In this document: positions 4,124 through 50,429 of the stretch, piece after piece | How positions within the stretch are numbered: position 1 is the first letter of the stretch | How the letters are laid out: each line of letters begins with the position of its first letter | From: a virus | Reading direction: 5' to 3' (one strand) | Virus record (IMG/VR): IMGVR_UViG_3300046819_000377 | Span: 3,802-67,801 of that record | Length of the DNA: 64,000 bases | Translations under genes and position numbers: made by a program | Notes under the pieces: generated by a model | The model's database searches: none | Seen by the model: only the letters and a program-made list of their open reading frames with translations | What the model was told of the DNA's origin: nothing

Positions 4124-4125
4124 TG

Positions 4126-4154
4126 TTGACAAGAGTGTATTGTAGCAATATAAT
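4126..4154 (+). promoter_or_regulatory. sigma70 consensus promoter TTGACA-N17-TATAAT (overlaps terminator hairpin)
   Basis: TTGACA 4126-4131, TATAAT 4149-4154. Confidence 0.6.
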
Positions 4155-4166
4155 ACACTCTTTTTT
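4132..4166 (+). terminator. rho-independent terminator
   Basis: Stem AGAGTGTATT / AATACACTCT followed by TTTTTT (4161-4166). Confidence 0.65.
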
Positions 4167-4196
4167 AGCGTGATTTAAATTAGTAGGTATTAATTC

Positions 4197-5817: not shown

Positions 5818-6324
5818 ATGATTGAATATACAGTACGAGTTCATAAAGATAGAACCGAATGGTTTTTAAATGGCGAATTACATCGAGAAGATGGTCCAGC
5901 TGTTGAAAGGATAAATGGTTCTAAATTATGGTATTTAAATGGTAAACGTCATAGAACAGATGGCCCAGCTATTGAATATGCCAATAGCGAAAAACAATGG
6001 TATTTAAATGGCGAATTACATCGAGAAGATGGCCCCGCTATTGAATGGAAAGATGGATCTAAAGCATGGTATTTAAATGGACAATCACATCGAGAAGATG
6101 GCCCTGCACTTGAATGGGCAAATGGCGAAAAACAATGGTATTTAAATGGTAACCGTCATAGAACCGATGGCCCAGCTATTGAATATGCCAGTGGTAAAAA
6201 AGCATGGTACTTAAATGGTCAAGAATACACAGAACAAGATTTTAACAAACTGATTAATTGCACAGAATTATCAATAGCTGAAATCGAACAATTACTTGGT
6301 TATAAAATTAAGGTGGTAAGATGA
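5818..6324 (+). CDS. MORN-variant repeat protein (W[YW]LNG.xHREDGPAIE repeats)
   Basis: Seven 23-aa repeats. C-terminus ..EQDFNKLINCTELSIAEIEQLLGYKIKVVR. Confidence 0.7.
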   Translation: MIEYTVRVHKDRTEWFLNGELHREDGPAVERINGSKLWYLNGKRHRTDGPAIEYANSEKQWYLNGELHREDGPAIEWKDGSKAWYLNGQSHREDGPALEWANGEKQWYLNGNRHRTDGPAIEYASGKKAWYLNGQEYTEQDFNKLINCTELSIAEIEQLLGYKIKVVR

Positions 6325-14859: not shown

Positions 14860-14940
14860 ATGTTTTGGCTTTCATTTTTATTTGCAACAATCATCGTTGC
14901 ATCCATTAGTTATCAAATTGAAAAAAGAGTAAAAAAATGA
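14860..14940 (+). CDS. small hydrophobic peptide (26 aa), translationally coupled to AAA ATPase
   Basis: MFWLSFLFATIIVASISYQIEKRVKK. Its TGA overlaps ATG 14937 (ATGA). SD aaggaaatgg. Confidence 0.3.
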   Translation: MFWLSFLFATIIVASISYQIEKRVKK

Positions 14941-16268
14941 CATATATTCAAGAATTAATTGCCTATATCAATTCAATGACATCAGGTAACCAAATGGTTG
15001 CTGCTGCAATAAGTGCATGGATGTTGGCAGTTTTATCGTACATGCTTAAGAATATTCCTCGGACTATTATTAACTTTTTGTATAAGCAGGGTACAACTTC
15101 ATTAGAATTAGATAATGCTGGTGCTAATTTTCATTTATATTTTTCGTTCCTGGCATGGTCAGGTAAACATATGAATGAACATACCTCAAGAACAATGTTT
15201 GTACAGTCTCATAACTGGGATGCCACATCATTAGCAATCGGTCCTAGTTACGGTAATCATTTTTTCTTTTTCAAAAAACGGTTATATTGGATGACCATGA
15301 CTAAAATTGAAAATACAGGCGAAACGATTAGAAAACAAATCAAGATCACCACTTATGGACGTAGCCACAATGTATTTCATGCTTTGATTGATGAATTCAA
15401 ACCAGTAAACAAAACAACCGATACAATTTACATTCATAACTGGGATGGCAAAGGTTGGGAAAATCGTGTTGAACTTCACAAACGCCCATTATCATCAGTT
15501 GTACTGAACAAAACAGTTAAAAATAACGTAACCGCTGCAATAGAAAAATTTTATGCTGATAAACAATGGTATACTGAAAATGGTATCCCATATAAACTGG
15601 GTATCCTGTTACATGGTAACCCAGGCTGTGGTAAAACTAGTCTGGTAAAAGCATTGGCTAGTCATTACAATAGATCTATCTACGTTATTAATATCAATGC
15701 AATGTCTGATAGAACACTTGAATCAGCTATTTCCAAATCAGAAAAAGGCTCATTTATTTTGATCGAAGATTTTGATTCATCGAAAGCAGTTACCAAAAGA
15801 CAACGGGTTCAGGAATCTGTTGATAAAGCAAATGGTGAAGAAAAATCTGATCCAGGTAAACAACTGATCATCGATAACCCAATGGGTGAGTATGAGATGT
15901 TAAGTTTGACTGGTGTATTAAATGCAATTGATGGTGTTTCTTCTTTACACGAAAATATTATCATCATGACTACCAATGATGTTGACAAAATCGATCCAGC
16001 TGTGTTAAGATCTGGTCGATGTGATGTCAGATTGGAATTACCATACTTAACTGATCCTGAAATTCGTGAATACATCAGTATTAAGTTCCCAGATGCAAAT
16101 TTAGATGATTACACATTTAAAAATATCGCGGGTTGTGATTTACAAGCAACATTGATAGAACACAAAGATAGTAGTGATGGATTTTTATCATCACTAGAGG
16201 TAAAAGGAATTGCAAAGAAAAAGTTTCATTTCATGGAAATTGAAACAAAAATGCTTGACGTAGCTTAA
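14937..16268 (+). CDS. BCS1-like AAA+ ATPase with N-terminal membrane anchor
   Basis: TM helix AAISAWMLAVLSYML. Walker A GILLHGNPGCGKTS, Walker B FILIEDFD, arginine fingers VLRSGRCD. Linker domain typical of the Bcs1 family. Confidence 0.75.
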   Translation: MTYIQELIAYINSMTSGNQMVAAAISAWMLAVLSYMLKNIPRTIINFLYKQGTTSLELDNAGANFHLYFSFLAWSGKHMNEHTSRTMFVQSHNWDATSLAIGPSYGNHFFFFKKRLYWMTMTKIENTGETIRKQIKITTYGRSHNVFHALIDEFKPVNKTTDTIYIHNWDGKGWENRVELHKRPLSSVVLNKTVKNNVTAAIEKFYADKQWYTENGIPYKLGILLHGNPGCGKTSLVKALASHYNRSIYVININAMSDRTLESAISKSEKGSFILIEDFDSSKAVTKRQRVQESVDKANGEEKSDPGKQLIIDNPMGEYEMLSLTGVLNAIDGVSSLHENIIIMTTNDVDKIDPAVLRSGRCDVRLELPYLTDPEIREYISIKFPDANLDDYTFKNIAGCDLQATLIEHKDSSDGFLSSLEVKGIAKKKFHFMEIETKMLDVA

Positions 16269-16314: not shown

Positions 16315-17382
16315 ATGACTTATTATTTGAAATCTGGCAACACATACAAACCAAGTGCAGAAGCATCATTGGATCTTCACTACACACTGCCAGTTGGCAA
16401 TTACATTATCAAAAAAGATCCTTTCGAAAATCTATATTTCGAAAAAATTGACAATTTCGAATTTTCTGGAAAACGCTATGGTGATAACCAGAAGAATACC
16501 GATCGGATTATCGATACCTTTATGGATCGTGAAGTTTCAACTGGCGTAATGTTGACTGGTGAAAAAGGTTCTGGTAAATCATTGTTAGCAAAATGCTTAT
16601 CAATGAAAGCAGCAGAATTAAACATCCCAACTTTAATCATTAACGATCCATGGTGTGGTGACAAATTTAACCGTTTGATCCAAGAAATTCAACAACCTTG
16701 TATCGTGTTATTTGACGAGTTTGAAAAGGTATATGACCGTGATAGCCAGGAATCAATCCTGACATTACTCGACGGCGTGTTCCCAACCAAAAAATTGTTT
16801 GTATTAACTTGTAATGACAAATGGCGCGTTGACCAACATATGCGTAATCGTCCAGGTCGTATTTACTACATGTTGGACTTCAAAGGTTTGAGCATCGAGT
16901 TCATTGAAGAATATTGCAATGATAACTTGAAAAACAAATCACATATCGATAACATTTGCAAAATTTCATCATTATTTGCACAGTTCAACTTCGATATGCT
17001 GAAAGCGCTGGTTGAAGAAATGAATCGTTATGATGAATCACCACAAGAAGCATTGGCTATGTTGAATGCAAAACCTGAGTTCGACGAAGGTAACAAATTC
17101 AATGTTCAATTACAAATCAATGGTGTTACTGTTGATCCAGATGATTACTACAACGGTGACAAATGGAACGGCAATCCATTACATGGCAGATTGCAAGTTG
17201 AATATCGTACCTATAAAGATGATCCAGAAGACGGTGTTTGGGTATATGCGAATTTCACACAAACTGATTTGAAAAACGTCGATGCATCTAACGGCAAGTT
17301 TGTGTTCATGAATGAAAAAAATGAAATCATGACCTTGACCAAAGTGAAAGATTCACATTTCAATTTTCACGACGTATTTTGA
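16315..17382 (+). CDS. second AAA+ ATPase (divergent, soluble)
   Basis: Walker A GEKGSGKS, Walker B IVLFDEFEK, sensor/Arg finger MRNRPGRI. About 120-aa C-terminal extension. Confidence 0.7.
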   Translation: MTYYLKSGNTYKPSAEASLDLHYTLPVGNYIIKKDPFENLYFEKIDNFEFSGKRYGDNQKNTDRIIDTFMDREVSTGVMLTGEKGSGKSLLAKCLSMKAAELNIPTLIINDPWCGDKFNRLIQEIQQPCIVLFDEFEKVYDRDSQESILTLLDGVFPTKKLFVLTCNDKWRVDQHMRNRPGRIYYMLDFKGLSIEFIEEYCNDNLKNKSHIDNICKISSLFAQFNFDMLKALVEEMNRYDESPQEALAMLNAKPEFDEGNKFNVQLQINGVTVDPDDYYNGDKWNGNPLHGRLQVEYRTYKDDPEDGVWVYANFTQTDLKNVDASNGKFVFMNEKNEIMTLTKVKDSHFNFHDVF

Positions 17383-17388
17383 TTAACC

Positions 17389-17417
17389 AAGTGGCGGGAT
17401 AAACCCGCCACTTTTCA
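17389..17417 (+). terminator. rho-independent terminator
   Basis: AAGTGGCGGG-ataaa-CCCGCCACTT + TTTT. Confidence 0.75.
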
Positions 17418-19700: not shown

Positions 19701-19736
19701 CATCATCCACTATAATAGTGGATGATGACTTTTTTA
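19701..19736 (+). terminator. rho-independent terminator
   Basis: CATCATCCACTA-taat-TAGTGGATGATG + TTTTTT. Confidence 0.75.
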
Positions 19737-21904: not shown

Positions 21905-22345
21905 ATGATTGAATACACAGTACGAGTTTATGAAAATAAAACCGAATGGCGTTTAAATGGACAATTACACCGAGAAGATGGTCCTGCTATTGAACGGGAA
22001 GATGGATCTAAATTATGGTATCAACATGACAAATTACATCGAGAAGATGGTCCAGCTATTGAATGGTCAAATGGTTCTAAATTATGGTATCAACATGACA
22101 AATTACATCGAGAAGATGGTCCAGCTATTGAATGGTCAAATGGTGAAAAACAATGGTATTTAAATGGCAACGTACATCGAGAAGATGGCCCAGCTGTTGA
22201 ATATACCAGTGGCAATAAAGAATGGTGGTTAAATGGTAAAAAATTTACAGAACAAGAATTCAATCAACGAACCCAGGGTAAAGAGCTATCAGTAGCTGAA
22301 ATTGAACAATTACTTGGTTATAAAGTTAAAATTGTTGACAGATAA
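21905..22345 (+). CDS. MORN-variant repeat protein
   Basis: Five WY(L/Q)(N/H)..HREDGPAIEW repeats. C-terminal LSVAEIEQLLGYKVKIVDR. Confidence 0.7.
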   Translation: MIEYTVRVYENKTEWRLNGQLHREDGPAIEREDGSKLWYQHDKLHREDGPAIEWSNGSKLWYQHDKLHREDGPAIEWSNGEKQWYLNGNVHREDGPAVEYTSGNKEWWLNGKKFTEQEFNQRTQGKELSVAEIEQLLGYKVKIVDR

Positions 22346-22396: not shown

Positions 22397-22912
22397 ATGA
22401 TTAAATATAGAATACGGGATTATCCTAAATGGTATTTAAATGACAACGTACATCGAGAAGATGGCCCAGCTATTGAATGTGCAGAGGGCTATAAAGAATG
22501 GTGGTTAAATGGCAAGGCATACACAGAACAAGAATTCATCCAAATGACCCAAGGAAAAGAGCTATCAATAGCTGAAATTGAAGAATTACTTGGTTATAAA
22601 ATTAAGGTGGTAAAAATGATCGAATACACAGTACAAGTTTACGAAGATAGAACTGCATGGTTTTTAAATGGCAAATTACATCGAGAAGATGGACCAGCTA
22701 TTGAATGGATGGGTGGCAATAAAGAATGGTGGGTAGATGGCAAATTACATCGAGAAGATGGCCCAGCTATTGAATGGATGGGTGGCAATAAACAATGGGT
22801 TTTAAATGGCAAATTACATCGAGAAGATGGACCAGCTATTGAATATGCAAATGGTTACAAAGAATGGTGGGTGAATGATAAACGTCATAGAACAGATGGC
22901 CCAGAGATCTAG
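22397..22912 (+). CDS. MORN-variant repeat protein: in-frame fusion of two MORN genes, 3' end disrupted by frameshift
   Basis: ..LLGYKIKVVK-MIEYTVQV.. fusion at 22606-22612, where a 1-nt difference from the 6318-6324 ATGA junction removes the stop. A 17-nt deletion near 22905, relative to the 6545 copy, truncates the C-terminus. Confidence 0.5.
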   Translation: MIKYRIRDYPKWYLNDNVHREDGPAIECAEGYKEWWLNGKAYTEQEFIQMTQGKELSIAEIEELLGYKIKVVKMIEYTVQVYEDRTAWFLNGKLHREDGPAIEWMGGNKEWWVDGKLHREDGPAIEWMGGNKQWVLNGKLHREDGPAIEYANGYKEWWVNDKRHRTDGPEI

Positions 22913-23039
22913 AGAGTGGTATTTAAATGGTCAAGAATATTCAGAACAAGATTTTAACAAACTGATTAATTGCACAGAATTATCAATAGCTGAAATCGAA
23001 CAATTACTTGGTTATAAAGTTAAAATTGTTGACAAATAA
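22906..23039 (+). repeat. orphan 3' fragment of MORN gene (near-identical copy of 6559-6692)
   Basis: Out-of-frame continuation encodes RSREWYLNGQEYSEQDFNKLINCTELSIAEIEQLLGYKVKIVDK*. Confidence 0.6.
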
Positions 23040-23056
23040 CAGATTACTGTTATAAT
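23029..23056 (+). promoter_or_regulatory. sigma70-like promoter TTGACA-N16-TATAAT
   Basis: Upstream of natV. SD TAGGAG. Confidence 0.55.
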
Positions 23057-23108
23057 AAATAAACATTAGCGATAGACGCTAATAACAATTAACTATAGGA
23101 GTTATAGT

Positions 23109-24122
23109 ATGAAAAAATATGATAATGCAGTAGTAATCATGAGAGCGCAACCACTTCACAACGCTCATTTAGAATTAATCAATAGAGCAGCAGAATTGGC
23201 AAAAAATGTCATTATCTTGCTCGGCTCATCCAAACAACCAAGAACATTTAAGAATCCATTTACATTCAGTGAACGTTGTGGGATGATCTTACGTTCAATT
23301 AACATCAAACCAGCCGTTCAGGTTTATATCGAACCATTAGTGGATATTCCTTATAATGATCAGGTTTGGGCGATCAATGTCCAACGCATTGTTGCTGAAT
23401 GTACACATGGTCAAAGTGTTTGTTTGCTTGGACATAATAAAGGTCCAGAAACCTACTACCTAAAACTATTTCCACAATGGGCTTTGGAAGAATTCGATAA
23501 TGTACAAAACCAATTGAATGCCACTGATATTCGTGAGTTGTATTTTAAAACTCCATATAACCAAGATTATATCAAAGGTGTGGTACCTGATGATACTTTA
23601 TCATTCTTAAATCAATTTCATGGAACCGATGAATACAATGCCATCCTAGATGAGAAAGAATTCATCGCCAAGTATAAACAACAATTTGCTGGTTTAGCAT
23701 ATCCTCCAGTATTTGTTACTGTGGATTGCTGTGTGATTCAATCTGGTCATGTATTAATGATTGAAAGACGATCAAATCCTGGAAAGGGTACTTTTGCCAT
23801 GCCCGGCGGCTTTCTAGATCAAAATGAACTAATCATCGATGGTGCTGTTCGTGAATTAAAAGAAGAAACTAAAATCAAAGTGCCAGTGCCAGTGTTAAAA
23901 GGCAGCATTAAAGCAAGTCATGTATTTGATCACCCAGGTAGATCATTTAGAGGTAGAACTATTACCCATGCTTTTTACATCGAATTACCAGAAGGGCCAC
24001 TTGAAAAAGTTAAAGGTGCCGATGATGCAAAAACCGCAACATGGATTCCAATATCACAATTACAAAGTGAAAATTGCTTTGAAGATCATTATTCAATTAT
24101 TCAACATTTTTTAGGAAACTAA
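23109..24122 (+). CDS. natV: bifunctional NMN adenylyltransferase / Nudix ADP-ribose pyrophosphatase (NadM-Nudix, NatV-like)
   Basis: N-terminal nucleotidyltransferase (VIMRAQPLHNAH). C-terminal Nudix box GGFLDQNELIIDGAVRELKEETKI. Confidence 0.8.
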   Translation: MKKYDNAVVIMRAQPLHNAHLELINRAAELAKNVIILLGSSKQPRTFKNPFTFSERCGMILRSINIKPAVQVYIEPLVDIPYNDQVWAINVQRIVAECTHGQSVCLLGHNKGPETYYLKLFPQWALEEFDNVQNQLNATDIRELYFKTPYNQDYIKGVVPDDTLSFLNQFHGTDEYNAILDEKEFIAKYKQQFAGLAYPPVFVTVDCCVIQSGHVLMIERRSNPGKGTFAMPGGFLDQNELIIDGAVRELKEETKIKVPVPVLKGSIKASHVFDHPGRSFRGRTITHAFYIELPEGPLEKVKGADDAKTATWIPISQLQSENCFEDHYSIIQHFLGN

Positions 24123-24124
24123 TA

Positions 24125-24316
24125 ATGGTTAGGGTAATATCAACACAACCACATCCTAGTGTGGTTAAAGAAACAATTTGCAAACATTGCGGGGCAGTGT
24201 TAGAATACGTGCCAGCAGACATTCAAACAAGACAAGAACAGGATTATACTGGTGGAACAGATTTTATTCATTTTATCATTTGTCCTCCTTGTGGACATAA
24301 AATTACAGTTAAGTGA
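24125..24316 (+). CDS. small zinc-ribbon protein (CxxC...CxxC)
   Basis: CKHCGAV...CPPCGHK. Confidence 0.5.
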   Translation: MVRVISTQPHPSVVKETICKHCGAVLEYVPADIQTRQEQDYTGGTDFIHFIICPPCGHKITVK

Positions 24317-24317
24317 A

Positions 24318-24506
24318 ATGAATTGGACTAGAATCTTTGCTAGAGCATTTGACCATTTAATGGGTGAGACCGATCACGATGAACCAACGGTTCCAATCTT
24401 ATCACAACGTGAAGCTAGTATTAGTCTAGTATTAAGGACTTTCTGGGTTATGCTACACGTTATAACTTGTCTTATTGTAATAGCATCTAACATACATCAT
24501 TGGTAA
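24318..24506 (+). CDS. small protein with C-terminal TM (62 aa)
   Basis: Internal ATG of ORF 24252..24506, just after the upstream TGA. Confidence 0.3.
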   Translation: MNWTRIFARAFDHLMGETDHDEPTVPILSQREASISLVLRTFWVMLHVITCLIVIASNIHHW

Positions 24507-24510
24507 TAAC

Positions 24511-24690
24511 ATGAATAGAGAAAAAATAAACAAAGAAGTAAATGAATGGGACAACATACGCCCTACTAAACAATCATCAGTGACTGAACATGAAAGTAAT
24601 AAAGATATTACTCATGAAAAAGTACAAAATTTAATTCAAATGGGTAATGAATTATTAGCTAAAACTCTGAAATATTTGAAGGCCGACTAA
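24511..24690 (+). CDS. hypothetical small protein (59 aa)
   Basis: MNREKINKEVNEWDN... TAATG overlap with next gene. Not in the ORF track. Confidence 0.3.
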   Translation: MNREKINKEVNEWDNIRPTKQSSVTEHESNKDITHEKVQNLIQMGNELLAKTLKYLKAD

Positions 24691-24980
24691 TGAAAATTGA
24701 TGAAGTTGTTATTCGGCCAGAACGAAAAACATGGGAGTTAATGCAGAATGATGCACTTGTCTCACCGATATATAATGCATACAATGAATTTTCAAGAAAG
24801 ACTGCTAAATTTACTATTGGTGCAAATACAATATTTGATGAGTATGCACTCACTGACCTTATTGTGAATTATCAAACTTATAAAAATGCACTACTAGAAG
24901 TGTTTAATGAAAAAGATCAAGTAATTAAAATAATTGATAGGATTATTAGTTATTTGGAATATGGTGAACTAGATGAGTGA
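24690..24980 (+). CDS. hypothetical protein (96 aa)
   Basis: ORF track. Confidence 0.5.
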   Translation: MKIDEVVIRPERKTWELMQNDALVSPIYNAYNEFSRKTAKFTIGANTIFDEYALTDLIVNYQTYKNALLEVFNEKDQVIKIIDRIISYLEYGELDE

Positions 24981-25290
24981 ACAACTATCAGTAAATGAAG
25001 CATGGCTTTTTTTAAAAGAAGTCACTAAAAGAGGAACCAATTCTTTATCAAAAGAAGAATTGGTCAAATACCATGAATGTCGTAAAATTACACTTAATGC
25101 AAGAAAACCACCATCGGTTCATACCAGACATCAAGTAGTTGATCATGAAACATTCGGCGGTACAACTTACAGAATTACCAAGGAATTAGATATCACTATT
25201 ACCGATATTTGTGATATGAGTGATGAGGATATCTTAAAACTGATTGACGTAAAATCAACATTGGCTTATATTAGATCTACTTTGATATGA
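24973..25290 (+). CDS. hypothetical protein (105 aa)
   Basis: ORF track. Confidence 0.5.
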   Translation: MSEQLSVNEAWLFLKEVTKRGTNSLSKEELVKYHECRKITLNARKPPSVHTRHQVVDHETFGGTTYRITKELDITITDICDMSDEDILKLIDVKSTLAYIRSTLI

Positions 25291-25499
25291 TCATAGAAAT
25301 TTTCGATGCAGGGATTGCGTTTAAATTTAAATTCGGTGCTGACGTTCTTCGTACTAATGATGAAATACGAAACACAAATCAACAAGAAATGGAGCTATGG
25401 TGTAAAGACCAATTTGGTAGCCAATTTACATCACGGTATAATCATTTTTACTTTGCCAACGAAGAACAACGTAATTGGTTTATTTTGAGGTGGTCATGA
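25287..25499 (+). CDS. W-family small protein (ends EEQRNWFILRWS*)
   Basis: ATGA overlap. C-terminal motif. Confidence 0.6.
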   Translation: MIIEIFDAGIAFKFKFGADVLRTNDEIRNTNQQEMELWCKDQFGSQFTSRYNHFYFANEEQRNWFILRWS

Positions 25500-25696
25500 G
25501 CGTTCTAGATTTAAAAAAAGGTACATTAGCCAGTAACATTACACATCTGTTTTTTAAAGCCGAACCTCAACAATGGTATGATTTTGTTAAAAGTTTAGAT
25601 CCAAATATCATTAAAGTTGAGGGTGTGGATGGCATTACTCGGATTACCTTCAAGAGTGATGAACATAAGACTTGGTTTATTTTGAGGTGGTCATGA
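25496..25696 (+). CDS. W-family small protein (ends DEHKTWFILRWS*)
   Basis: Junction TTGAGGTGGTCATGA. Confidence 0.6.
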   Translation: MSVLDLKKGTLASNITHLFFKAEPQQWYDFVKSLDPNIIKVEGVDGITRITFKSDEHKTWFILRWS

Positions 25697-25896
25697 GTGT
25701 TCTATATTTAAAAGGAGATACAGTAAACAAAAACATTACACGACTGTTTTGTAAAGCCGGTCCTCAACAACTATGGTATGATTTTGTTAAAAGTTTAGAT
25801 CCAAATATCATTAAAGTTGAGTGCGTGAAAGGCTTCACTCGGATTACCTTCAAGAGTGATGAACATAAGACTTGGTTTATTTTGAGGTGGTCATGA
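25693..25896 (+). CDS. W-family small protein, near-duplicate of 25496..25696
   Basis: About 85% aa identity with the previous gene. Same junction. Confidence 0.6.
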   Translation: MSVLYLKGDTVNKNITRLFCKAGPQQLWYDFVKSLDPNIIKVECVKGFTRITFKSDEHKTWFILRWS

Positions 25897-26141
25897 AATT
25901 ATATTTAGAATACGATCAATTTTTAGAAAGTCAACCAAGCTGGTGGCAGAATTTCATCATTGATGTTGATACTCGGTTAAGATTAGATCCAGGCAAATTT
26001 TCAGAAGGTCGTTCTATCATCATAAAAAAAGAACTAAAATTAGCAGGTGCTGTTAAGGTGGATGATAAAGAATGCGAAGAATCATATTTAGAATTTTTTG
26101 ATGATTCAAAAGCAACCTGGTTTATGTTGAAATACTCATGA
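25893..26141 (+). CDS. W-family small protein (ends KATWFMLKYS*)
   Basis: Same junction. Confidence 0.55.
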   Translation: MKLYLEYDQFLESQPSWWQNFIIDVDTRLRLDPGKFSEGRSIIIKKELKLAGAVKVDDKECEESYLEFFDDSKATWFMLKYS

Positions 26142-26377
26142 AATTAAGAACTATCAATACCAGTTCATTCGTTATCTTTTGTGATTGTCCATATGGCTTG
26201 GAATTTATTTTAGCTGACATTATGACAATATCAGTAATGCGGGTCTGGTGTAAGAAAAATTTCCGTACCTATAATTATTATTGGGAATGGTCCCCTGCTG
26301 GAACTGTGAGAACATTTTGCTTTAATTCAGAAGAAAACCGATCCTGGTTTATACTTAAATTTTCGGAGTATCTATGA
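26138..26377 (+). CDS. W-family variant (ends RSWFILKFSEYL*)
   Basis: ATGA overlap. Confidence 0.55.
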   Translation: MKLRTINTSSFVIFCDCPYGLEFILADIMTISVMRVWCKKNFRTYNYYWEWSPAGTVRTFCFNSEENRSWFILKFSEYL

Positions 26378-26601
26378 ATGCGGCTATTGATAATATATTG
26401 GATCATGCACATTGTAAATTCCCTGTAAAAATAAAAGACGATTACGGTATAATTTCAGAAATGACCCAATGGTGCAGAGACCATATTGGTACATATTACT
26501 TTACGTGGGATTGGGTAGTATATCGTGGTGTAAAAATGTTTTATTTTGAAAAAGAACATCACCGAACCTGGTTTATCATTAGATTTTCGGAGTACTTATG
26601 A
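26374..26601 (+). CDS. W-family variant (ends RTWFIIRFSEYL*)
   Basis: ATGA overlap. Confidence 0.55.
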   Translation: MNAAIDNILDHAHCKFPVKIKDDYGIISEMTQWCRDHIGTYYFTWDWVVYRGVKMFYFEKEHHRTWFIIRFSEYL

Positions 26602-26798
26602 GCGATGGTTATAACGATCCATTCCCATGGAAAGTACAGTTTAAGCCAAGCCGATATTTTCCAAAATATTATAATGAAATGGCAGATTTTTGTAATAAAA
26701 TGACAGATCATTGGGGAAGTGTAGAGTATACGTTTATGTTTGCATACGAAGAACATATGAACTGGTTTATACTTAAATTTTCGGAGTACTTGGAATGA
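26598..26798 (+). CDS. W-family variant (ends MNWFILKFSEYLE*)
   Basis: ATGA overlap. Confidence 0.55.
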   Translation: MSDGYNDPFPWKVQFKPSRYFPKYYNEMADFCNKMTDHWGSVEYTFMFAYEEHMNWFILKFSEYLE

Positions 26799-27043
26799 GT
26801 TTTTACATAGCAACCATACCATTTAAAGAATGGATAACTGATCCTATGCAACGCCCAATCGTTTACGTAAGTATGATTGAATGGTGCAAGGAAAATATAG
26901 AACCAAGACATCAACCAGAATCACCACACTACTGGTTCCCTAGAGCATTTCGTGGTAGAACTGGTGTGTATAAATTTCATTTCAGAGATGAACAAGACTA
27001 CAATAACTTTGTTCAACATTTTAAGTTGGAAGATGTCATATGA
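26795..27043 (+). CDS. hypothetical protein (82 aa)
   Basis: ATGA overlap. Confidence 0.5.
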   Translation: MSFYIATIPFKEWITDPMQRPIVYVSMIEWCKENIEPRHQPESPHYWFPRAFRGRTGVYKFHFRDEQDYNNFVQHFKLEDVI

Positions 27044-27270
27044 ATAAAACGATTAAGTGCATTTACGAATACGCGAAAACTGATGTTAACAGTGAAGAAG
27101 AACTAATCCAGAAATTTGCTGAAGGAATGCTTATGCAAATTGATGCAGTATTCAGATCACATTGCTATAACATAGATGATTACATGAAACTCAGTGATAA
27201 CGAACAGTTCTACTTGGTAGGAGCTGGTCTTTTACACACAAAAATAAAACGCCAGTTTAGTGAGGACTAA
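27040..27270 (+). CDS. hypothetical protein (76 aa)
   Basis: ATGA overlap. Confidence 0.5.
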   Translation: MNKTIKCIYEYAKTDVNSEEELIQKFAEGMLMQIDAVFRSHCYNIDDYMKLSDNEQFYLVGAGLLHTKIKRQFSED

Positions 27271-27369
27271 ATGAAAGATAAAATTGTTTCATTTGCAATT
27301 TACCTAGTACTATCATTTTTTGATTGGTTGTACAACGTACAAGCATGGATTAAGGAAAAATTTGATTGA
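27271..27369 (+). CDS. small hydrophobic peptide (32 aa)
   Basis: TAAATG junction. MKDKIVSFAIYLVLSFFDWLYNVQAWIKEKFD. Not in the ORF track. Confidence 0.25.
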   Translation: MKDKIVSFAIYLVLSFFDWLYNVQAWIKEKFD

Positions 27370-27394
27370 CATTTTCTATTAATTGATCTATACT
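27366..27394 (+). promoter_or_regulatory. candidate promoter TTGACA-N17-TATACT
   Basis: TTGACA 27366-27371, TATACT 27389-27394. Confidence 0.4.
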
Positions 27395-27424
27395 ATGGTC
27401 ATCTCAACATTAAAAAGGGTTAAC

Positions 27425-27601
27425 ATGACAACTTATGCATTATTTTTATATCTATCAACTGGTATTCTTCAGAACGCAACTGGTGGTCCGGCAGTAGTTG
27501 ATGGATTTACAACAATGGAAAAATGCGAAGCAGCTATTCAAGCTGCAAAAGCACAATTGAAACAATATGATTGGGGTAAATGTATGAAGGTAGATAAATG
27601 A
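27425..27601 (+). CDS. small secreted protein (signal peptide)
   Basis: MTTYALFLYLSTGILQNATGGPA. Confidence 0.45.
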   Translation: MTTYALFLYLSTGILQNATGGPAVVDGFTTMEKCEAAIQAAKAQLKQYDWGKCMKVDK

Positions 27602-27783
27602 CAAATACACCAACTATTGCAGAACTACTCACCCGCATCGCAAATCTTGAATCACGATTGGAAGAATTACAAATTATGTATGATAACAAATGTGATGCAC
27701 TAGCAGATGTGAAAAAAGAATATGCCGAATATCGATCAGAAGTGGTATGGGGAAATGACAGAAACCAAATGGGGTGTTTTTAA
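27598..27783 (+). CDS. hypothetical protein (61 aa), coiled coil
   Basis: ATGA overlap. Confidence 0.45.
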   Translation: MTNTPTIAELLTRIANLESRLEELQIMYDNKCDALADVKKEYAEYRSEVVWGNDRNQMGCF

Positions 27784-27784
27784 A

Positions 27785-28099
27785 ATGACATTCATTGAAC
27801 AAGTATTTAAAATTTCTGATTCAGTTAAAAACGACCGAACTGTGCTTGGTGTCCTCGGACATACTATGTCTGAACTGGGTGAACTAGCAGAAGAAGTAAC
27901 CATTGATCAAGGACAAAGTTATAAGAATCCAGGTGATGATGGTGTTATAGGCGAAGCGATCGATACGATTATATGTATTCTAGATTTGATACGAATCACA
28001 TATCCAAATATAACCGAACAAGATTTGCAACAAATCGCTGAAATTAAATTACAAAAATGGGTTGATAAAACCAACAATAAAGGTGGACAAAATGGGTAG
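27785..28099 (+). CDS. mazG: MazG-like nucleoside triphosphate pyrophosphohydrolase (putative)
   Basis: LGVLGHTMSELGELAEEV and GEAIDTIICILDL helices resemble the MazG EExxE/D signature. Confidence 0.45.
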   Translation: MTFIEQVFKISDSVKNDRTVLGVLGHTMSELGELAEEVTIDQGQSYKNPGDDGVIGEAIDTIICILDLIRITYPNITEQDLQQIAEIKLQKWVDKTNNKGGQNG

Positions 28100-29045
28100 T
28101 TGGGCAGGTAGTTGTGCTATTAGTAATCTTCATATTAAAGATCAAGACGATGTAGTTGTATTTGCATTACTTAAAAATAAAGATGAACTCAATAATTTTA
28201 TTTACAATAATTCATTGTATTCAGTTTGCCCCCTACCATTTTATGCAACCTACAACGATTACGGAGCATGCATCAATGAGCATGGTGCCGGTTTCGATCC
28301 ATTCATGAAATTACTTACTCAACGGATGGTTGAATTTGAAATTGGTGATAATAAGTACCATGATATCGAAGTAAAAAAAGAAGGATTCAATGCAGAAAAA
28401 ATGTGGGATGCAAATCATGAAGAAAGATTGTATTTCAAACCATATGGAAAAGATCAACTTAAAGTAGAATTGATTATGGTTCATCGTGCGGTATTTGATG
28501 CAATCATTGCCGAACGACATCAATACATGGCCAAAAATCAAGATGGTGAATATGTATATTTTTATTACACATTTCAAGATGTTGCTGACTTGGTTCCAGC
28601 ATTTGTTGATACACTATATGATGCCATCTCTGAGATCAGTGCATTATCTGATACCATCACAAAGTGCGACGCAATATCTACTCAGCAGCTCATGATGAAA
28701 AAATATATGCTCCCAGTAACTGTATTCAACTATGATGAAAATAATAAATTATCAAGATACCTATCTAATGACTCATATAAATGGGCAATTGTCGATCGGC
28801 TTAAAGATTACATAATTCAATATGCTGAAAAATACAGTAAAGAAGAAACAATTGCATTAATTGTTGAATTATTGAAAGGTATCTTTGTCGATGATTTTGT
28901 TACTGATACCCGTAAATTATGGGTTCCACCAAGTGGCCGTGGTAGTCAATCACAAGCACATAGCCCATATAGAACTTTAATCAAAGCAATGTCTGAAATT
29001 CTTGATAAAGAAAAAGAAGAATGGGATTCAGATGACGACGATTAA
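28092..29045 (+). CDS. hypothetical protein (about 317 aa), acidic C-terminus
   Basis: SD AGGTGG before ATG 28092. Confidence 0.6.
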   Translation: MGSWAGSCAISNLHIKDQDDVVVFALLKNKDELNNFIYNNSLYSVCPLPFYATYNDYGACINEHGAGFDPFMKLLTQRMVEFEIGDNKYHDIEVKKEGFNAEKMWDANHEERLYFKPYGKDQLKVELIMVHRAVFDAIIAERHQYMAKNQDGEYVYFYYTFQDVADLVPAFVDTLYDAISEISALSDTITKCDAISTQQLMMKKYMLPVTVFNYDENNKLSRYLSNDSYKWAIVDRLKDYIIQYAEKYSKEETIALIVELLKGIFVDDFVTDTRKLWVPPSGRGSQSQAHSPYRTLIKAMSEILDKEKEEWDSDDDD

Positions 29046-29069
29046 CTCTAATTTCTAGTTGACACATTA

Positions 29070-29100
29070 AAAGAAAGTAGACATTATATCTACTTTCTTT
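29070..29100 (+). terminator. hairpin, perfect 12-bp stem (AAAGAAAGTAGA/TCTACTTTCTTT); terminator-like
   Basis: Follows the 29045 stop. Preceded by TTGACA 29059-29064. Confidence 0.5.
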
Positions 29101-29109
29101 GGAGGATTT

Positions 29110-29250
29110 ATGGTATATGTGATTATTATGATCGCCCAGTTAGCAACAGTTCTATTTACTTCATTATTATTTGGACGAGCTGGGTTTCTTGGTGCACTAA
29201 CCGGTGTTATTGTTTATTGGGTATTTCGTCTACTTGGGGTAGATTGGTAA
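29110..29250 (+). CDS. small membrane peptide (46 aa, 2 TM)
   Basis: SD GGAGG. MVYVIIMIAQLATVLFTSLLFGRAGFLGALTGVIVYWVF.. Not in the ORF track. Confidence 0.35.
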   Translation: MVYVIIMIAQLATVLFTSLLFGRAGFLGALTGVIVYWVFRLLGVDW

Positions 29251-29260
29251 CCAATCCAGC

Positions 29261-29288
29261 TTGACAAATATAAGTAATAGTGTATAAT
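29261..29288 (+). promoter_or_regulatory. sigma70 consensus promoter TTGACA-N16-TATAAT (nadV)
   Basis: TTGACA 29261-29266, TATAAT 29283-29288. 5' UTR hairpin CAATACATTG..CAATGTATT. SD AAGGAG. Confidence 0.65.
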
Positions 29289-29339
29289 ACACAATACATT
29301 GATAGACAATGTATTAATTAATTTTTAAGGAGTTTAAAA

Positions 29340-30803
29340 ATGATAGAACATCTAAAACAACAAAATTTTATCTTACAAGCCGATGCGTACAAAGCTACAC
29401 ATTGGAAGCAATTAAAAAGATCAACTAACAAATCTTACTCGGTTATCGTCCCACGCAAAGTTAGCAAATATTCGGATATCATAGTTGCAATGGGGCAATC
29501 AATGGTTGCTTCATATTTTGCATCTGTCCGTATCACCGATGAAATGATCGATGAAGCTGAATTGGAAATTACCGAACAAGGCTATGATTTCTACCGAGCT
29601 GGATGGGAATATATTGCACACGAATTAGACGGTAAATTACCATTAGCAATTTTTGGTGTTGAAGAAGGTCGTATCGTACAACCACAAACGCCTATTTTAG
29701 GCATTATTAATACCGATGACCGTTCAGCTTGGTTACCTGCATACTCGGAAACTATTGCACAAGATATTATCTGGACAATGAGTTCAGTAGCAAGTTTATC
29801 GTTAGCAATTAGAAAAACATTTGCACATTATATCGAAGAAACTGGTGCTCACATGAATCAGTTGAACACCCGTTGTCATTTCTTTGGTGATCGTGGTGGT
29901 AGTTCTCCTGAATCTGCAGTACTTACTGCCATAGCACATGCCGTAATTTTTGATGGCAGTGATTGTTTACAAGCCAATCGTTATATCAAACGTTTGTATA
30001 ACACTTCAAAAGCATATACTTCAAGTATTGTTGCCACCGAACACAGTACAATGTGTGATAATTCTGACGCAACTACCAAAGATGATTACGGTGCAGCAGT
30101 AATGGCAGTCGAATTACTGGAACAAGCAGTTGAACGCACTAAAACCCGTGGAATTGGTATTCCAATGATTAGTGCAGTTATTGACACATACGATAGTCGT
30201 AGATTTGTCAGAGATTATGTTGGTGGTCCTGAATTAAAAGAACGTGTTATCAATAGTGGTGGTACATTTGTGTTTCGTCCTGATTCTGGTGATATTACAG
30301 TAGAGCCAGGTATGGTCGGTAATGACATTGAATATGCATTTGGTGTAGAAGTCAATGAAAAAGGATACAAAGTTATCCCTTGCTATACCGCAGTATTACA
30401 AGGCGATGGTATTAAATGGAATACTTACGAAAGTGTAATTAAAGGATGGGTTGATGCTGGTTTCAGTATTGATAACTTTGCTATTGGTATGGGCGCTGGA
30501 TTATCAAATGGTACTTCAAGAGACGATTTCAGTTTCAGTATGAAAAGTATTGCAACATTTGATGGGCTGCGTTGGACTCGTAAATTAAAAGAACCAAAAA
30601 CCGATCTTGGTAAAAAATCATTATCAGGATTAGTTAGATGTCGTGAAGATGCCAATGGTAACTTGGAAGTATACGATGCTATACACGAAGGCAACGAGTA
30701 CGGTTTTATGTATCCAGGTTCTGGTTGGAAGTTATGGTTTGAAAACGGCCATAGAAAATATCGTCAATCTTTTGATGAAGTCCGTGAATGGGCTTCAAAG
30801 TAA
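29340..30803 (+). CDS. nadV: nicotinamide phosphoribosyltransferase (NAMPT / NadV)
   Basis: N-terminal ILQADAYKATHW. Full-length (487 aa) with the NAMPT signature. Confidence 0.85.
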   Translation: MIEHLKQQNFILQADAYKATHWKQLKRSTNKSYSVIVPRKVSKYSDIIVAMGQSMVASYFASVRITDEMIDEAELEITEQGYDFYRAGWEYIAHELDGKLPLAIFGVEEGRIVQPQTPILGIINTDDRSAWLPAYSETIAQDIIWTMSSVASLSLAIRKTFAHYIEETGAHMNQLNTRCHFFGDRGGSSPESAVLTAIAHAVIFDGSDCLQANRYIKRLYNTSKAYTSSIVATEHSTMCDNSDATTKDDYGAAVMAVELLEQAVERTKTRGIGIPMISAVIDTYDSRRFVRDYVGGPELKERVINSGGTFVFRPDSGDITVEPGMVGNDIEYAFGVEVNEKGYKVIPCYTAVLQGDGIKWNTYESVIKGWVDAGFSIDNFAIGMGAGLSNGTSRDDFSFSMKSIATFDGLRWTRKLKEPKTDLGKKSLSGLVRCREDANGNLEVYDAIHEGNEYGFMYPGSGWKLWFENGHRKYRQSFDEVREWASK

Positions 30804-39645: not shown

Positions 39646-40617
39646 ATGAATATTTATATTCCGTACACTTATATTATCAAATTTTTACCAACTGGTCAAG
39701 TCTATTATGGCGTTAGTTATGCTAATAGCAATAAAGTAGCCAATCCATCACAGTTATGGACTAGTTATTTTACCTCTTCCAAGATTATTCATGGATTAAT
39801 AAAGGAACATGGCATTGATGCATTCAAGTTTGAAGTTAGAAAAACCTTCGATAGCAAAGAAAAGGCTGTGTTATGGGAACATAAGATCCTTATAAAATTT
39901 GATGCCAAGAACAATCCAATATGGCTTAATCAAAACAATGGTAATAAAAAGTTCAAATCAATTCCGCACACCACTGAAACAAAATTAAAAATTTCACTCG
40001 CACATAAAGGTAAAAAACTGTCTCCTATCACAGTTGAAAAAATAAAAAATGCAAACACTGGTAAGAAACGAACACCAGAACAAAATGCTAATACATCTGC
40101 CAGACAATTGGGGACCAAAAGAGGGCCATTATCGGATGACTGTAAGAAAAAATTATCGAGTATTCTGAAAGACAGAAAATTGACATCTGACCATAAACAA
40201 AAAATATCAATCGCACTTACTGGAAAAACTGGCACATTCACTGGTAGGAATCATACACCTGAAACAAAAGCAAAAATTTCAGCAGCACATTTAGGAAAAA
40301 AGAAGAAACGCGATCCTAATAAAAATCCACCGAAAGGCGAATCTCATCCATTATACGGCAGAACAGTACCAGCGGAAATTAGACAAAAAATTGCTATGGC
40401 GCACAAAGGTAAACCAAAGACTGAAAAACAAATTCAATCAGTAATTGATCATTCTGCTAAAACTTATAGTTTAACTACACCAGCTGGTGATACTATTATA
40501 ATAACTAATATGGCCAAATTTTGTAGAGATAATGATCTATTACGAGAAAGTATGATGAAAGTAATTCATGGTCGTATGAAATCATGTAATGGATGGACAG
40601 GGAAACTCGTTGAATAA
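39646..40617 (+). CDS. GIY-YIG homing endonuclease with NUMOD3-like repeats (free-standing, antisense to neighbours)
   Basis: IYIPYTYIIKF..GQVYYGVS (GIY-YIG). Repeated H(T/K)xE(T/Q)KxKIS..GK(K/P) modules. SD GGAGGG. Confidence 0.75.
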   Translation: MNIYIPYTYIIKFLPTGQVYYGVSYANSNKVANPSQLWTSYFTSSKIIHGLIKEHGIDAFKFEVRKTFDSKEKAVLWEHKILIKFDAKNNPIWLNQNNGNKKFKSIPHTTETKLKISLAHKGKKLSPITVEKIKNANTGKKRTPEQNANTSARQLGTKRGPLSDDCKKKLSSILKDRKLTSDHKQKISIALTGKTGTFTGRNHTPETKAKISAAHLGKKKKRDPNKNPPKGESHPLYGRTVPAEIRQKIAMAHKGKPKTEKQIQSVIDHSAKTYSLTTPAGDTIIITNMAKFCRDNDLLRESMMKVIHGRMKSCNGWTGKLVE

Positions 40618-45933: not shown

Positions 45934-46698
45934 ATGGAATTTTTGAATAATAAGTATACCAAAATGTATTTCTCGATTGTTGAAAATGCAAAATTAAGAA
46001 AATGTATAGATGGGTATTCTGAAAAACATCATATAATCCCTAAAAGTTTAGGTGGTGATAATAGTCATACTAATATAGTAATACTTACTGCACGTGAACA
46101 TTTTGTATGTCATAGATTATTGCCAAAAATGACTACCGGTAGTTTTAGATACAAAATGCTTTCTGCCATATTTAGGATGATGCATAGCAGTCAATCACAA
46201 CGGTATATTGGTACGTCTCATACGTATAATTCTATAAAAATAGAGAAGGCGAAGTTAGCATCAACTATATTCAGTGGTGATAATAATCCATTTTATGGAA
46301 AGACCCATTCTGAAGAAACCAGGCAACGATTAAAAATCGCGAGGGAACTTCAAGTAGCCCGTCAAGGCACTACCATGACTGCCGAAGCTAGGCAAAAGTT
46401 AAGTGTTGCCGCAAAAGGTAGAATCTTAACTGATGAACATAAGCGAAAAATAGGAATTGCAAATTCTAATAAACCGATGTCTGAAGAGCATAAAGCCCGA
46501 CTATTACTCACTAGAAAAGGAATACCATTAACACCCGACCATAGAAAACTTCTCAGTGATGTTAAGAAAAATATACCGCAATTGGTTGTGAAATGCCCAC
46601 ATTGTGACAAATCTGGCGGCGTTTCTCTTATGAAAAGATGGCATTTTGATAATTGTAAATGTATTACTAATGGAAAGGTAACTAATGCGATTTCGTGA
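45934..46698 (+). CDS. HNH homing endonuclease with NUMOD3 repeats and C-terminal Zn finger
   Basis: HHIIPKSLGGDNSHTNIVILTAREHFVCH. NPFYGKTHSEETRQRLK. CPHCDKSGGVSLMKRWHFDNCK. Confidence 0.75.
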   Translation: MEFLNNKYTKMYFSIVENAKLRKCIDGYSEKHHIIPKSLGGDNSHTNIVILTAREHFVCHRLLPKMTTGSFRYKMLSAIFRMMHSSQSQRYIGTSHTYNSIKIEKAKLASTIFSGDNNPFYGKTHSEETRQRLKIARELQVARQGTTMTAEARQKLSVAAKGRILTDEHKRKIGIANSNKPMSEEHKARLLLTRKGIPLTPDHRKLLSDVKKNIPQLVVKCPHCDKSGGVSLMKRWHFDNCKCITNGKVTNAIS

Positions 46699-47925: not shown

Positions 47926-48741
47926 ATGAAATATATTTTATTATTACTCGCTGCAGGTTTTACACTTTCAGCAGAAGCCTGGGACCAAGTTGCCCCATAT
48001 CCAATTGAAAAATGCCAAGTACAATCACCGTATGGCTTTCCACAAACTTCTAAACAAGGTGTAGCAATATGTCGTGCTGGTTATGTTACATTAAACGATA
48101 CTACTGCAAAATTACCAGTTTGGGTTTCTTATACATTATATCCTGAATATGCGTTAGGATGTGTTCCACGTTCTAATGGCTTTGCCCCCGATCAAAGCTT
48201 ACCAAAAGGTAGTAGGGCAGAGCTAATCGATTTTAAAGGCAGCGGCTATGATATTGGTCACGTAGTACCCAATGCAGATCAATCAAGGTTCGATCAAACA
48301 GAAAAAGAAAGTTTCTTATTAACTAATATGGTGGCTCAATTACCAGGAACTAATAGAGGAATAATTAAATTGACCGAAACTAATATTCGTGGATGGGTAA
48401 CACAGAGAAATCATCCATATGTAATTTATTCTGGTCCATTATATGGACCAGGTGATAAAACTATTGGTTTAAACCAAATAGTCGTTCCTCATGCATTTTA
48501 TAAAATAGTAATTGACACAACAACTAATGAAGTTGCTGGATTTCTAATACCACATGTCGGAAATCAAGGAAATGACTTGACAAAAGTTAGAGCACCAATT
48601 GATCAAATCCAACAATTATCAGGAGTCCAATTTGCATACCCAGCGAATGCGGTTGAATTACCATTAAATTATTTATGGCCTGTTGATTATAAAGCATTAA
48701 CCGAAGCGAAAAGAGCTGCATGCAAAGGCAACGCTAACTAA
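47926..48741 (+). CDS. secreted DNA/RNA non-specific endonuclease (Endonuclease I / NucA-like)
   Basis: Signal peptide MKYILLLLAAGFTLSAEA. GYDIGHVVPNADQS (DRGH-type motif). LPGTNRG..RGW. Confidence 0.6.
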   Translation: MKYILLLLAAGFTLSAEAWDQVAPYPIEKCQVQSPYGFPQTSKQGVAICRAGYVTLNDTTAKLPVWVSYTLYPEYALGCVPRSNGFAPDQSLPKGSRAELIDFKGSGYDIGHVVPNADQSRFDQTEKESFLLTNMVAQLPGTNRGIIKLTETNIRGWVTQRNHPYVIYSGPLYGPGDKTIGLNQIVVPHAFYKIVIDTTTNEVAGFLIPHVGNQGNDLTKVRAPIDQIQQLSGVQFAYPANAVELPLNYLWPVDYKALTEAKRAACKGNAN

Positions 48742-50327: not shown

Positions 50328-50339
50328 CCAGTCATACTC

Positions 50340-50364
50340 GATATCCCTAATTGTTAGGGATATC
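50340..50364. promoter_or_regulatory. perfect palindrome GATATCCCTAA-ttg-TTAGGGATATC between convergent genes
   Basis: 11-bp arms with a 3-nt loop. Weak T-run, so it may be a terminator or a protein-binding site. Confidence 0.4.
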
Positions 50365-50429
50365 ACCTCAATGGTTTTATTAACTGTTCAAAAGAAACAT
50401 ATTATAGTGTTTAAGAAGTACGTAAACAT

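Follow-up and report, generated by a model that had tools for sequence, protein, structure and literature searches.

A 64,000-nucleotide (nt) stretch of viral DNA, positions 3,802-67,801 of the IMG/VR record IMGVR_UViG_3300046819_000377 (hereafter the window, to whose 64 kb all statements about this genome refer), carries the genes natV and nadV, whose predicted products form the nicotinamide adenine dinucleotide (NAD+) reconstitution route known in phages as NARP2, and each of the two genes is preceded by a leader of about 50 nt that consists almost entirely of two RNA hairpins. From comparison across phages and bacteria, we consider it fairly probable that this is a NARP2 pair in which each gene stands behind a selected two-hairpin leader acting in translational control. 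The enzyme pair itself is known; the shared leader, apparently undescribed, represents a well-supported candidate regulatory RNA of phages and bacteria, and it was left out of an earlier note made from the sequence of the window alone.

The shared leader and its conservation

Both leaders follow one architecture, in which a first hairpin (H1) with a free stem and an A-N-N-G-A loop is followed by a G-poor linker of variable length and by a second hairpin (H2) with GGAG in the loop, adjoining or overlapping the AUG (Table 1). The natV H1 begins 2-3 nt after the predicted transcript start. Between natV and nadV the H1 stems are unrelated, and the loop and closing G-C pair are identical; these are the only hairpins in the window with an ATAGA loop and a stem of at least 7 bp. 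In phage versions the ribosome-binding site of H2 lies open and is not sequestered. A covariance model of the leader matches the window at 23061-23111 (56.5 bits) and 29291-29342 (38.7 bits), and with filters off the third-best match reaches 15.5 bits, leaving the natV and nadV leaders as the sole true hits. The window holds 15 perfect TTGACA-N15-18-TATAAT promoters, against 0.25 expected by chance, all pointing the same way as their genes, and among the leaders behind them only those of natV and nadV fold, at -10.2 kcal/mol (z = -3.4) and -9.7 kcal/mol (z = -3.6), respectively. The other 13 have essentially no structure (between 0 and -5.8 kcal/mol for 47 nt), and a value of 0 kcal/mol was obtained for two shorter control leaders.

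Relatives of NatV and NadV fetched from IMG/VR provided 35 phage loci in addition to the window. The leader precedes natV and nadV in phages whose proteins are merely 38-57% identical to those of the window, with unrelated H1 stems and the loops AUAGA, AGAGA, AGUGA or AAAGA; at one locus (L004), whose NatV is 98% identical to that of the window, the H1 stem is completely different and the loop is the same. A structural scan of 696 kb returned 74 hits, almost all of them on the gene strand, whereas shuffled replicates gave about 5 each. The open reading frames (ORFs) that follow encode NatV, NadV, PnuC (assigned by Pfam NMN_transporter at E 1e-33 to 1e-46) and a few small unknown proteins.

The covariance model was built from 43 unique leaders aligned with MAFFT, blind to structure, and on that alignment 11 of the 13 consensus pairs show double compensatory changes. 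Its search of the phage loci gave 74 matches, all on the gene strand and exactly two of them in the window, and recovered out of sample the leaders of four NadV homologues that had not been in the seed. When leaders are aligned to the model, an alignment fitted to the structure, 96.8% of cells pair, compared with 56% after shuffling and 28-52% with partners slid, and the covariation score is 0.999 as against about 0.1 in controls. By the measure of these compensatory changes, the RNA structure of the leader is under strong selection.

Cultured phages also have the leader. Model matches lie upstream of natV and of nadV in Synechococcus phage B23 and Rhodobacter phage RcXuper; for Ralstonia phage RSP15, with the loops AGGGA and ACGGA, it was recognised by eye at both genes, the model match there being marginal and confined to nadV (E 0.53). 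The jumbo enterobacterial phages CBB, pEa_SNUABM_44, Muenster and phiKp_21 have the two hairpins at natV and nadV but at none of the neighbouring genes, in a variant whose H1 loop is the hexaloop G-W-W-G-U-A. The leader is not general to phage genes of the nicotinamide phosphoribosyltransferase (Nampt) family, being absent in the NARP1 phages RODI and Bubs, in Felix-O1-like phages and in Pakpunavirus. As a single case, Pseudomonas phage JG004 (L133), which has no NatV, shows a strong hairpin, GGCCCAGAU-UGAUGUA-GUCUGGGCC, about 30-55 nt upstream of its Nampt-like gene; the loop includes GAUGUA, the jumbo-phage hexaloop, and no H2 follows.

The bacterial set comprised 80 loci encoding NadM-Nudix proteins 43-53% identical to the NatV of the window. 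At least one copy of the leader is present in 64 of them, and adjacent nadM-nadV pairs have a copy before each cistron. Model matches end exactly at the nadM start codon or precede the next gene, the structural scan gives 102 gene-strand hits against 11 on the opposite strand, and NadM-Nudix or NadV is encoded by 83 of the 89 downstream ORFs. A purely phage-specific element is thereby ruled out; judged from the sampled sequences, the leader marks natV/nadM, nadV and pnuC across phages and bacteria.

Several proteins of no assigned function also lie behind a copy of the leader. In L004 these are a 238-aa (amino acid) member, at 3479-4192, of the MORN-like family described below and a 99-aa ORF; elsewhere they are proteins of 120-136 aa with the motif GEDPNCDxGG..HQPDLG (L018 2408-2767, L022 9592-9999), a 213-aa protein (L010/L012/L032 9280-9918) and a 108-aa protein (L006 9421-9744). 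The 120-136 aa family and the 213-aa and 108-aa proteins have no Pfam match and are candidate new members of a phage NAD regulon.

Sequence constraint was counted over 156 unique scan hits, from a relaxed scan that includes some false positives, and in these A1, G4 and A5 of the H1 loop are invariant. Of 88 bacterial copies, 78 close the H1 loop with a G-C pair, whereas the AGAGA phage clade uses C-G; G.U pairs make up 11-13% of H1 pairs, and the linker of 0-25 nt has 7-9% G and no conserved position. Directly upstream of phage H1, promoter-like sites matching at least 10 of 12 positions occur in 18% of cases, compared with 0.8% at control positions. A pseudoknot between the H1 loop and downstream sequence is ruled out, the local complement of a copy's own loop being present in just 5 of 134 cases. 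Paired CsrA/RsmA sites were likewise rejected; H2 has GGA, but few H1 loops do (about 5 of 68 in phages, 2 of 88 in bacteria). Against Rfam 15, leaders from the window, the phages and the bacteria gave no match even at E 10, only tRNAs being found, and searches of the openly accessible literature turned up no description of an RNA element at nadV or nadM or in NARP2 phages.

Table 1. Coordinates and main characters of the leaders, genes and promoters in the window
Feature	Position	Strand	Character
natV promoter	23029-23056	+	TTGACA-16-TATAAT, 12/12, TG before -10
natV H1	23065-23083	+	AUUAGCG-AUAGA-CGCUAAU; 7 bp stem, AUAGA loop, G-C closing pair
natV H2	23092-23108	+	ACUAUA-GGAGU-UAUAGU; ribosome-binding site in loop, AUG directly after
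natV	23109-24122	+	337 aa; NadM-type NMN adenylyltransferase (residues 1-170) and Nudix ADP-ribose pyrophosphatase (residues 196-337)
nadV promoter	29261-29288	+	TTGACA-16-TATAAT, 12/12
nadV H1	29293-29315	+	AAUACAUUG-AUAGA-CAAUGUAUU; 9 bp stem, AUAGA loop, G-C closing pair
nadV H2	29321-29341	+	AUUUUUAA-GGAGU-UUAAAAAU; ribosome-binding site in loop, A and U of the start codon paired in stem
nadV	29340-30803	+	487 aa; nicotinamide phosphoribosyltransferase (Nampt)
NADAR/YbiA-type gene (Glu type)	1324-1848	+	promoter TTGACA-17-TATACT at 1273-1301; no NAD leader; separate transcription unit
MazG-like candidate	27785-28099	+	small all-alpha NTP pyrophosphatase; in small-ORF operon from promoter-like site 27366-27394; no NAD leader
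Perfect promoters, + strand	2749, 4126, 5756, 10530, 14507, 18870, 21843, 22335, 23029, 29261	+	
Perfect promoters, - strand	36262, 39560, 40703, 44704, 49781	-	

Possible modes of action and significance

The leader is most likely a translational control element, because H2 holds the ribosome-binding site and abuts the AUG and because adjacent bacterial cistrons each have a copy of their own. In the mechanism that we propose, a separate consensus sigma-70 early promoter would drive transcription of each gene through the leader, a trans-acting factor would read the free H1 loop and so set ribosome access at H2, and this control would co-ordinate the unlinked natV and nadV while restraining a pathway that drains phosphoribosyl pyrophosphate (PRPP). 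NARP2 is known to be costly, since it consumes PRPP and makes NAD+ in excess, and the operon of KVP40 proved toxic to Escherichia coli (bioRxiv 10.1101/2024.02.11.579819); this cost and toxicity supply a rationale for control through the leader.

As to what reads the loop, our leading candidate, although we would give it somewhat less than an even chance, is one of the cassette's own protein products, NatV or NadV, acting under the influence of an NAD-related ligand. Feedback of an enzyme on its own mRNA is favoured because NatV/NadM and NadV are the only proteins common to all contexts, and an operator read by a protein fits better than a metabolite pocket because the free H1 loop is minimal, the linker unconstrained and the loop classes specific to lineages, with ANNGA giving way to GWWGUA as the protein lineage changes. 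Ranked behind it, and rather unlikely in our estimation, is a riboswitch, in which ribosome access would be set, without protein, by direct binding of NAD+, nicotinamide mononucleotide (NMN), nicotinamide, ADP-ribose or PRPP to the two hairpins together. The association with nadM, nadV and pnuC is a classic riboswitch signature, the leader includes the ribosome-binding site, and its survival of horizontal transfer among cyanobacterial and alpha- and beta-proteobacterial phages and many bacterial phyla suggests that no host-specific factor is needed; moreover, very small tandem-hairpin riboswitches such as guanidine-II exist. Known NAD+ riboswitches are also rare, with more classes expected (PMC7749635). 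The conserved part of the leader, however, amounts to three loop nucleotides and a closing pair, the linker has no conserved position, no pseudoknot or loop complementarity is present, and a loop that switches with protein lineage would be unusual for an aptamer with a fixed ligand. An unregulated element, with H1 guarding the mRNA from 5'-end-dependent decay and H2 presenting the ribosome-binding site, ranks slightly lower still: it would agree with the exposed ribosome-binding site of phage versions and with the position of phage H1 at, or a few nt from, the predicted start of transcription, as the enrichment of upstream promoters indicates and as both window copies illustrate, yet a stabiliser needs no invariant loop, whereas here A1, G4 and A5 are conserved across phyla together with the closing pair. 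It would also leave unaccounted for the confinement of the element to NAD salvage genes, its absence from the other 13 consensus-promoter leaders of the window, and the bacterial nadM-nadV pairs with a copy before each cistron.

It is highly improbable that the inverted repeats of H1 serve at the DNA level as operators of a dimeric NAD regulator such as NrtR, even though NrtR binds palindromes near nadM-nadV and prs-nadV operons and regulates them (PMC2330246) and the window H1 lie just downstream of promoters. The 21-bp sites of NrtR have conserved arms with a GT-N7-AC core (PMC2330246), whereas the arms of H1 vary and its asymmetric centre is conserved; the G.U pairs imply pairing on one strand only, the strand bias is 102 to 11, H1 keeps a set position with respect to the start codon and H2 and not to the promoter, and the phage loci were not seen to encode an NrtR homologue. 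A DNA operator of this type is rejected because of the variable arms, the G.U pairs and the strand bias.

Several observations weigh against control of a NARP2 pair by a selected leader. NatV and NadV have no recognised RNA-binding domain. The H1 consensus is absent at the loci of KVP40-like phages, of the T4-like phages Maroon and Aes508 and of phiCbK, and the leader is therefore not essential for NARP2. All loci were gathered through NatV/NadV homology, and this choice of sample accounts for part of the link between the leader and these genes, though not for the lack of leader hits elsewhere in the sampled loci; the fitting of the model alignment to the structure calls for similar caution. 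The leader may have been described in subscription literature or in motif lists outside the search, and the deviant NMN adenylyltransferase motif of NatV, discussed below, could mean reduced or altered activity.

The role of the cassette is a separate question. Its anti-defence role in the window is suggested by work on NARP2 elsewhere, and is only inferred because the same cassette and leader make up an ordinary bacterial nicotinamide salvage operon. That it is instead a general metabolic booster, supplying NAD+ for phage DNA ligase and nucleotide metabolism, is a plausible though not a preferred alternative, which draws on this bacterial counterpart and on the rise of NAD+ caused by NARP2 even without a defence system (bioRxiv 10.1101/2024.02.11.579819). 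Against it, the NARP2 of KVP40 overcomes Thoeris, DSR and other NAD+-depleting systems in experiments (bioRxiv 10.1101/2024.02.11.579819), and metabolic and anti-defence roles do not exclude each other.

NARP2 is a recently recognised phage route past NAD+-depleting immunity, and a leader confined to natV, nadV and pnuC offers a concrete 50-nt handle on its control. With the same element before bacterial nadM and nadV, it may constitute a missing layer in the control of NAD+ homeostasis, a field in which known NAD+ riboswitches are few and taxonomically narrow (PMC7749635). More tentatively, the leader could represent a new class of NAD-pathway sensor, whether riboswitch or enzyme-mRNA feedback operator, that is common to bacterial nadM-nadV and phage NARP2 and turns on phage NAD+ rebuilding after immune NADase action; if so, NADase-driven collapse of NAD+, or a flood of ADP-ribose and nicotinamide, would trigger rebuilding, and the phage would in effect sense that host immunity has been triggered. 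On the practical side, the covariance model serves as a marker for NAD salvage genes in unannotated phage and bacterial sequence.

The enzymes, their companions and the rest of the window

The earlier note had described a module of four genes encoding NatV, NadV, a NADAR protein and a MazG-like protein, and all four ORFs were found where it had placed them. Its two-enzyme route from Nampt and a bifunctional NMN adenylyltransferase (NMNAT) is upheld by domain, structure and motif matches, this combination of Nampt with NadM-Nudix being that published as NARP2 (bioRxiv 10.1101/2024.02.11.579819). NatV matches Pfam CTP_transf_like in its N-terminal part (E 3e-9), NUDIX in its C-terminal part (E 4e-17) and phrog_395 (E 3e-74), and its alignment with 2QJO, the structure of Synechocystis NadM-Nudix, covers the full length (E 1e-89). 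NadV matches Pfam NAMPT_N and NAPRTase, phrog_448 (E 4e-108) and NAMPT structures (E 2.5e-56), and retains the motifs DAYKxTHW, FGxRG, GSD, EHST, RPDSGD, QGDGI and RD...K, the residue roles of which we take to be those of human NAMPT. By homology and conserved motifs, NadV would convert nicotinamide and PRPP to NMN, the NMNAT domain of NatV would adenylate NMN to NAD+, and its Nudix domain would cleave ADP-ribose to AMP and ribose-5-phosphate. The 64 kb contain no PnuC homologue and, in tblastn searches with three phage Adps/Prs proteins, no Adps/Prs-like NARP1 marker, and NARP2 therefore fits better than NARP1 or NARP3.

The catalytic residues, on which the same note had made its proposal depend, are intact in NadV and in the Nudix box and deviant in the NMNAT signature. 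The Nudix box, GGFLDQNELIIDGAVRELKEETKI, conforms to GX5EX7REUXEEXGU except for a final G replaced by K, as also in Synechocystis NadM and all relatives. In the NMNAT half, NatV retains both His of HxxH (H17, H20) and the NATDIR motif, and its signature reads MRAQPLHNAH where 115 of 119 readable homologues have GR[F/L]xPxHxxH; the MR[A/G] form (G11M, F13A) is limited to the window and its close relatives L004 and L001/L005 (4 of 119 homologues), and D113G in the GHxKD motif (KD to KG) to the window and L004 (2 of 77). That the NMNAT domain of this clade has been lost or changed, leaving NatV mainly an ADP-ribose pyrophosphatase and the pair alone short of a complete NARP2, would account for this confinement and is nevertheless improbable: most other invariant residues are retained as well, HxAH is present in five homologues outside the clade, and identity between L005 and the window is higher in the NMNAT half (86%) than in the Nudix half (63%), the differences in the NMNAT half including synonymous ones. 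From these identities and synonymous differences, the NMNAT domain is under purifying selection and not decaying. Adenylyltransferase activity is likely rather than assured because G11M, F13A and D113G fall at near-invariant positions, and the gene set is best read as a further example of NARP2 with an orphan NADAR, subject to this caveat.

The contig of L001/L005 (3300044613_002694) is related to the window in a mosaic fashion, with NadV 99% and NatV 76% identical and more synonymous change in the Nudix half of NatV than in the NMNAT half, which suggests recombination inside natV.

The NADAR protein matches Pfam NADAR at E 6e-47, and its start is placed at ATG 1324 because the upstream TTG at 1273 belongs to the -35 hexamer. 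In alignment with 8BAU it has the equivalents of all five active-site residues (E43, K50, E125, D130 and W133, Phytophthora nicotianae numbering), so that the loss of catalytic residues raised as a doubt in the earlier note is not seen; Glu at the E125 position makes it YbiA-like. It is probably an ADP-ribose N-glycosidase of the AdfN/YbiA kind, and other phage NADARs are known to counter DarTG1, taking ADP-ribose off guanine in DNA (PMC11825919). Homologues of this Glu type lie in or beside nadM/natV-nadV cassettes in three phage loci (gp47 between natV and nadV in B23, adjoining nadV in L003, near natV in XacN1) and in 8 of 80 bacterial loci, a recurrence that hints at a thematic connection to NAD and ADP-ribose metabolism. 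Ubiquitin matches at the C-terminus of the window protein are spurious, arising from summed repeats.

The MazG-like call holds only at the level of PHROG (phrog_1247, 'MazG-like pyrophosphatase', E 1e-21) and finds no Pfam match even at E 10. The ORF is 43-47% identical to proteins annotated as MazG-like in KVP40, nt-1 and pT24, shows ExxE...ExxD motifs (ELGELAEE, GEAID) and matches YpjD/2GTA weakly (E 0.27). Synteny of MazG-like genes with natV in KVP40-like phages was considered and dropped, coordinates in different records giving no support for adjacency.

Own consensus promoters, as the earlier note had proposed, are confirmed for natV and nadV, both perfect. The single module is not: the span 23109-30803 is not compact, natV and nadV being 5.2 kb apart with about 20 small unrelated ORFs between them, and NADAR lies 21 kb away. 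A leader shared with NADAR or the MazG-like gene was excluded, neither giving a covariance model match with filters off; both are independent early genes with other promoters. The four-gene "toolkit" is thematic and not one module, because NADAR and the MazG-like gene are separate transcription units, and an anti-immunity character is suggested by published work for the NARP2 pair and, through the anti-DarTG1 role of other phage NADARs, for NADAR, whereas nothing was seen that would link the MazG-like protein to immunity.

With a G+C content (GC) of 34%, no near-identical phage in GenBank by megablast, closest proteins only 39-45% identical, and a virion protein 51% identical to its counterpart in cyanophage S-RIM32, the window can be placed as an AT-rich relative of T4-like cyanomyoviruses. 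Several of the 15 perfect promoters are followed by a common unstructured leader, ACTTAACACAACA.AG.GAGACA.AACATG. About 10-11 paralogous small ORFs of 66-99 aa (189-446, 795-1094, 1067-1276 and a tandem run at 25287-27043) end in a conserved W-[FC]-[IFM]-[LI]-[KRN]-[WFY]-S, often with overlapping stop and start codons; 7-8 of them occupy much of the natV-nadV gap, and neither Pfam nor PHROG gave a match for the single member searched (25475-25696). Directly upstream of natV lie genes of a MORN-like repeat family (HREDGPAxEW.NG.K.WY..GK; weak Pfam DUF6745; 5818-6324, 21905-22345, 22397-22912, 22875-23039), each served by a consensus promoter of its own. Upstream of the NAD region there is an adjacent pair of AAA-type ATPase genes (14937-16268, phrog_7485; 16315-17382, phrog_2376). 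Long perfect intergenic inverted repeats with 10-13 bp stems (17389-17413, 19701-19727, 50339-50365, 29070-29100), such as aagtggcggg-ATAAA-cccgccactt after the ATPase genes, are probably terminators. Three ORFs resembling homing endonucleases of GIY-YIG or HNH type (39646-40617, +; 45934-46698, +; 48738-49709, -; phrog_314, 655 and 7168) lie within 10 kb of each other. Finally, a long + strand ORF from 61462 past the end of the window, with collagen-like GATGPAG(I/V)DG repeats that account for a local rise in GC to 48%, probably encodes a fibre or decoration protein.

Comparison with known systems

In its enzymes, the window pair resembles the NARP2 of KVP40, which likewise combines Nampt with a NadM-type Nmnat-Nudix protein without an Adps partner, and the same chemistry is predicted at about 31-37% identity to the KVP40-like proteins (H63, H148). 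It differs in that natV and nadV are separated by many small ORFs and served by separate consensus promoters, in the deviant NMNAT signature and in the ANNGA two-hairpin leader. The likeness to the Synechocystis nadM-nadV genes slr0787/slr0788 extends over the full length of NatV, as the match to 2QJO shows, and bacterial NadM-Nudix homologues are as close to NatV as those of phages. The bacterial nicotinamide salvage II operon has the same leader before nadM and nadV, whereas the window pair resides in a phage and is driven by early sigma-70 consensus promoters. The NADAR protein shares the fold and the active-site residue equivalents of AdfN and other NADAR ADP-ribosylglycohydrolases (PMC11825919, PMC11543638) and is likewise an orphan phage copy without a DarT partner; it is, however, of Glu (YbiA-like) type where the AdfN of T4 is of His type.

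Among regulatory RNAs, the NAD+-I (nadA motif) and NAD+-II (pnuC motif) riboswitches are comparable in being cis-acting 5' leaders of NAD genes, pnuC included, that involve the ribosome-binding site. NAD+-II, restricted to Streptococcus, consists of P1, P1a and a pseudoknot, and NAD+-I is confined to Acidobacteria (PMC7749635); the present leader, by contrast, has two independent hairpins without a pseudoknot and extends over many phyla and phages.

A further formal parallel is offered by guanidine-II (mini-ykkC), with its tandem small hairpins, covarying stems, few invariant loop nucleotides, variable linker and a second hairpin adjoining the ribosome-binding site. The tandem arrangement, the linker and the place of the second hairpin recur in the leader, but the guanidine-II loops are both ACGR and kiss, whereas the leader loops, ANNGA and GGAGU, differ from each other and have no complementarity. 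The hairpin operators of translational repressors and lambda boxB also combine a short free stem with few invariant loop bases. The loop of the leader differs from that of boxB (GNRNA) and from MS2-type loops, and its cognate protein is only postulated; its placement near the initiation region and the drift of its loop with lineage are, in turn, what would be expected of an operator co-evolving with a protein partner.

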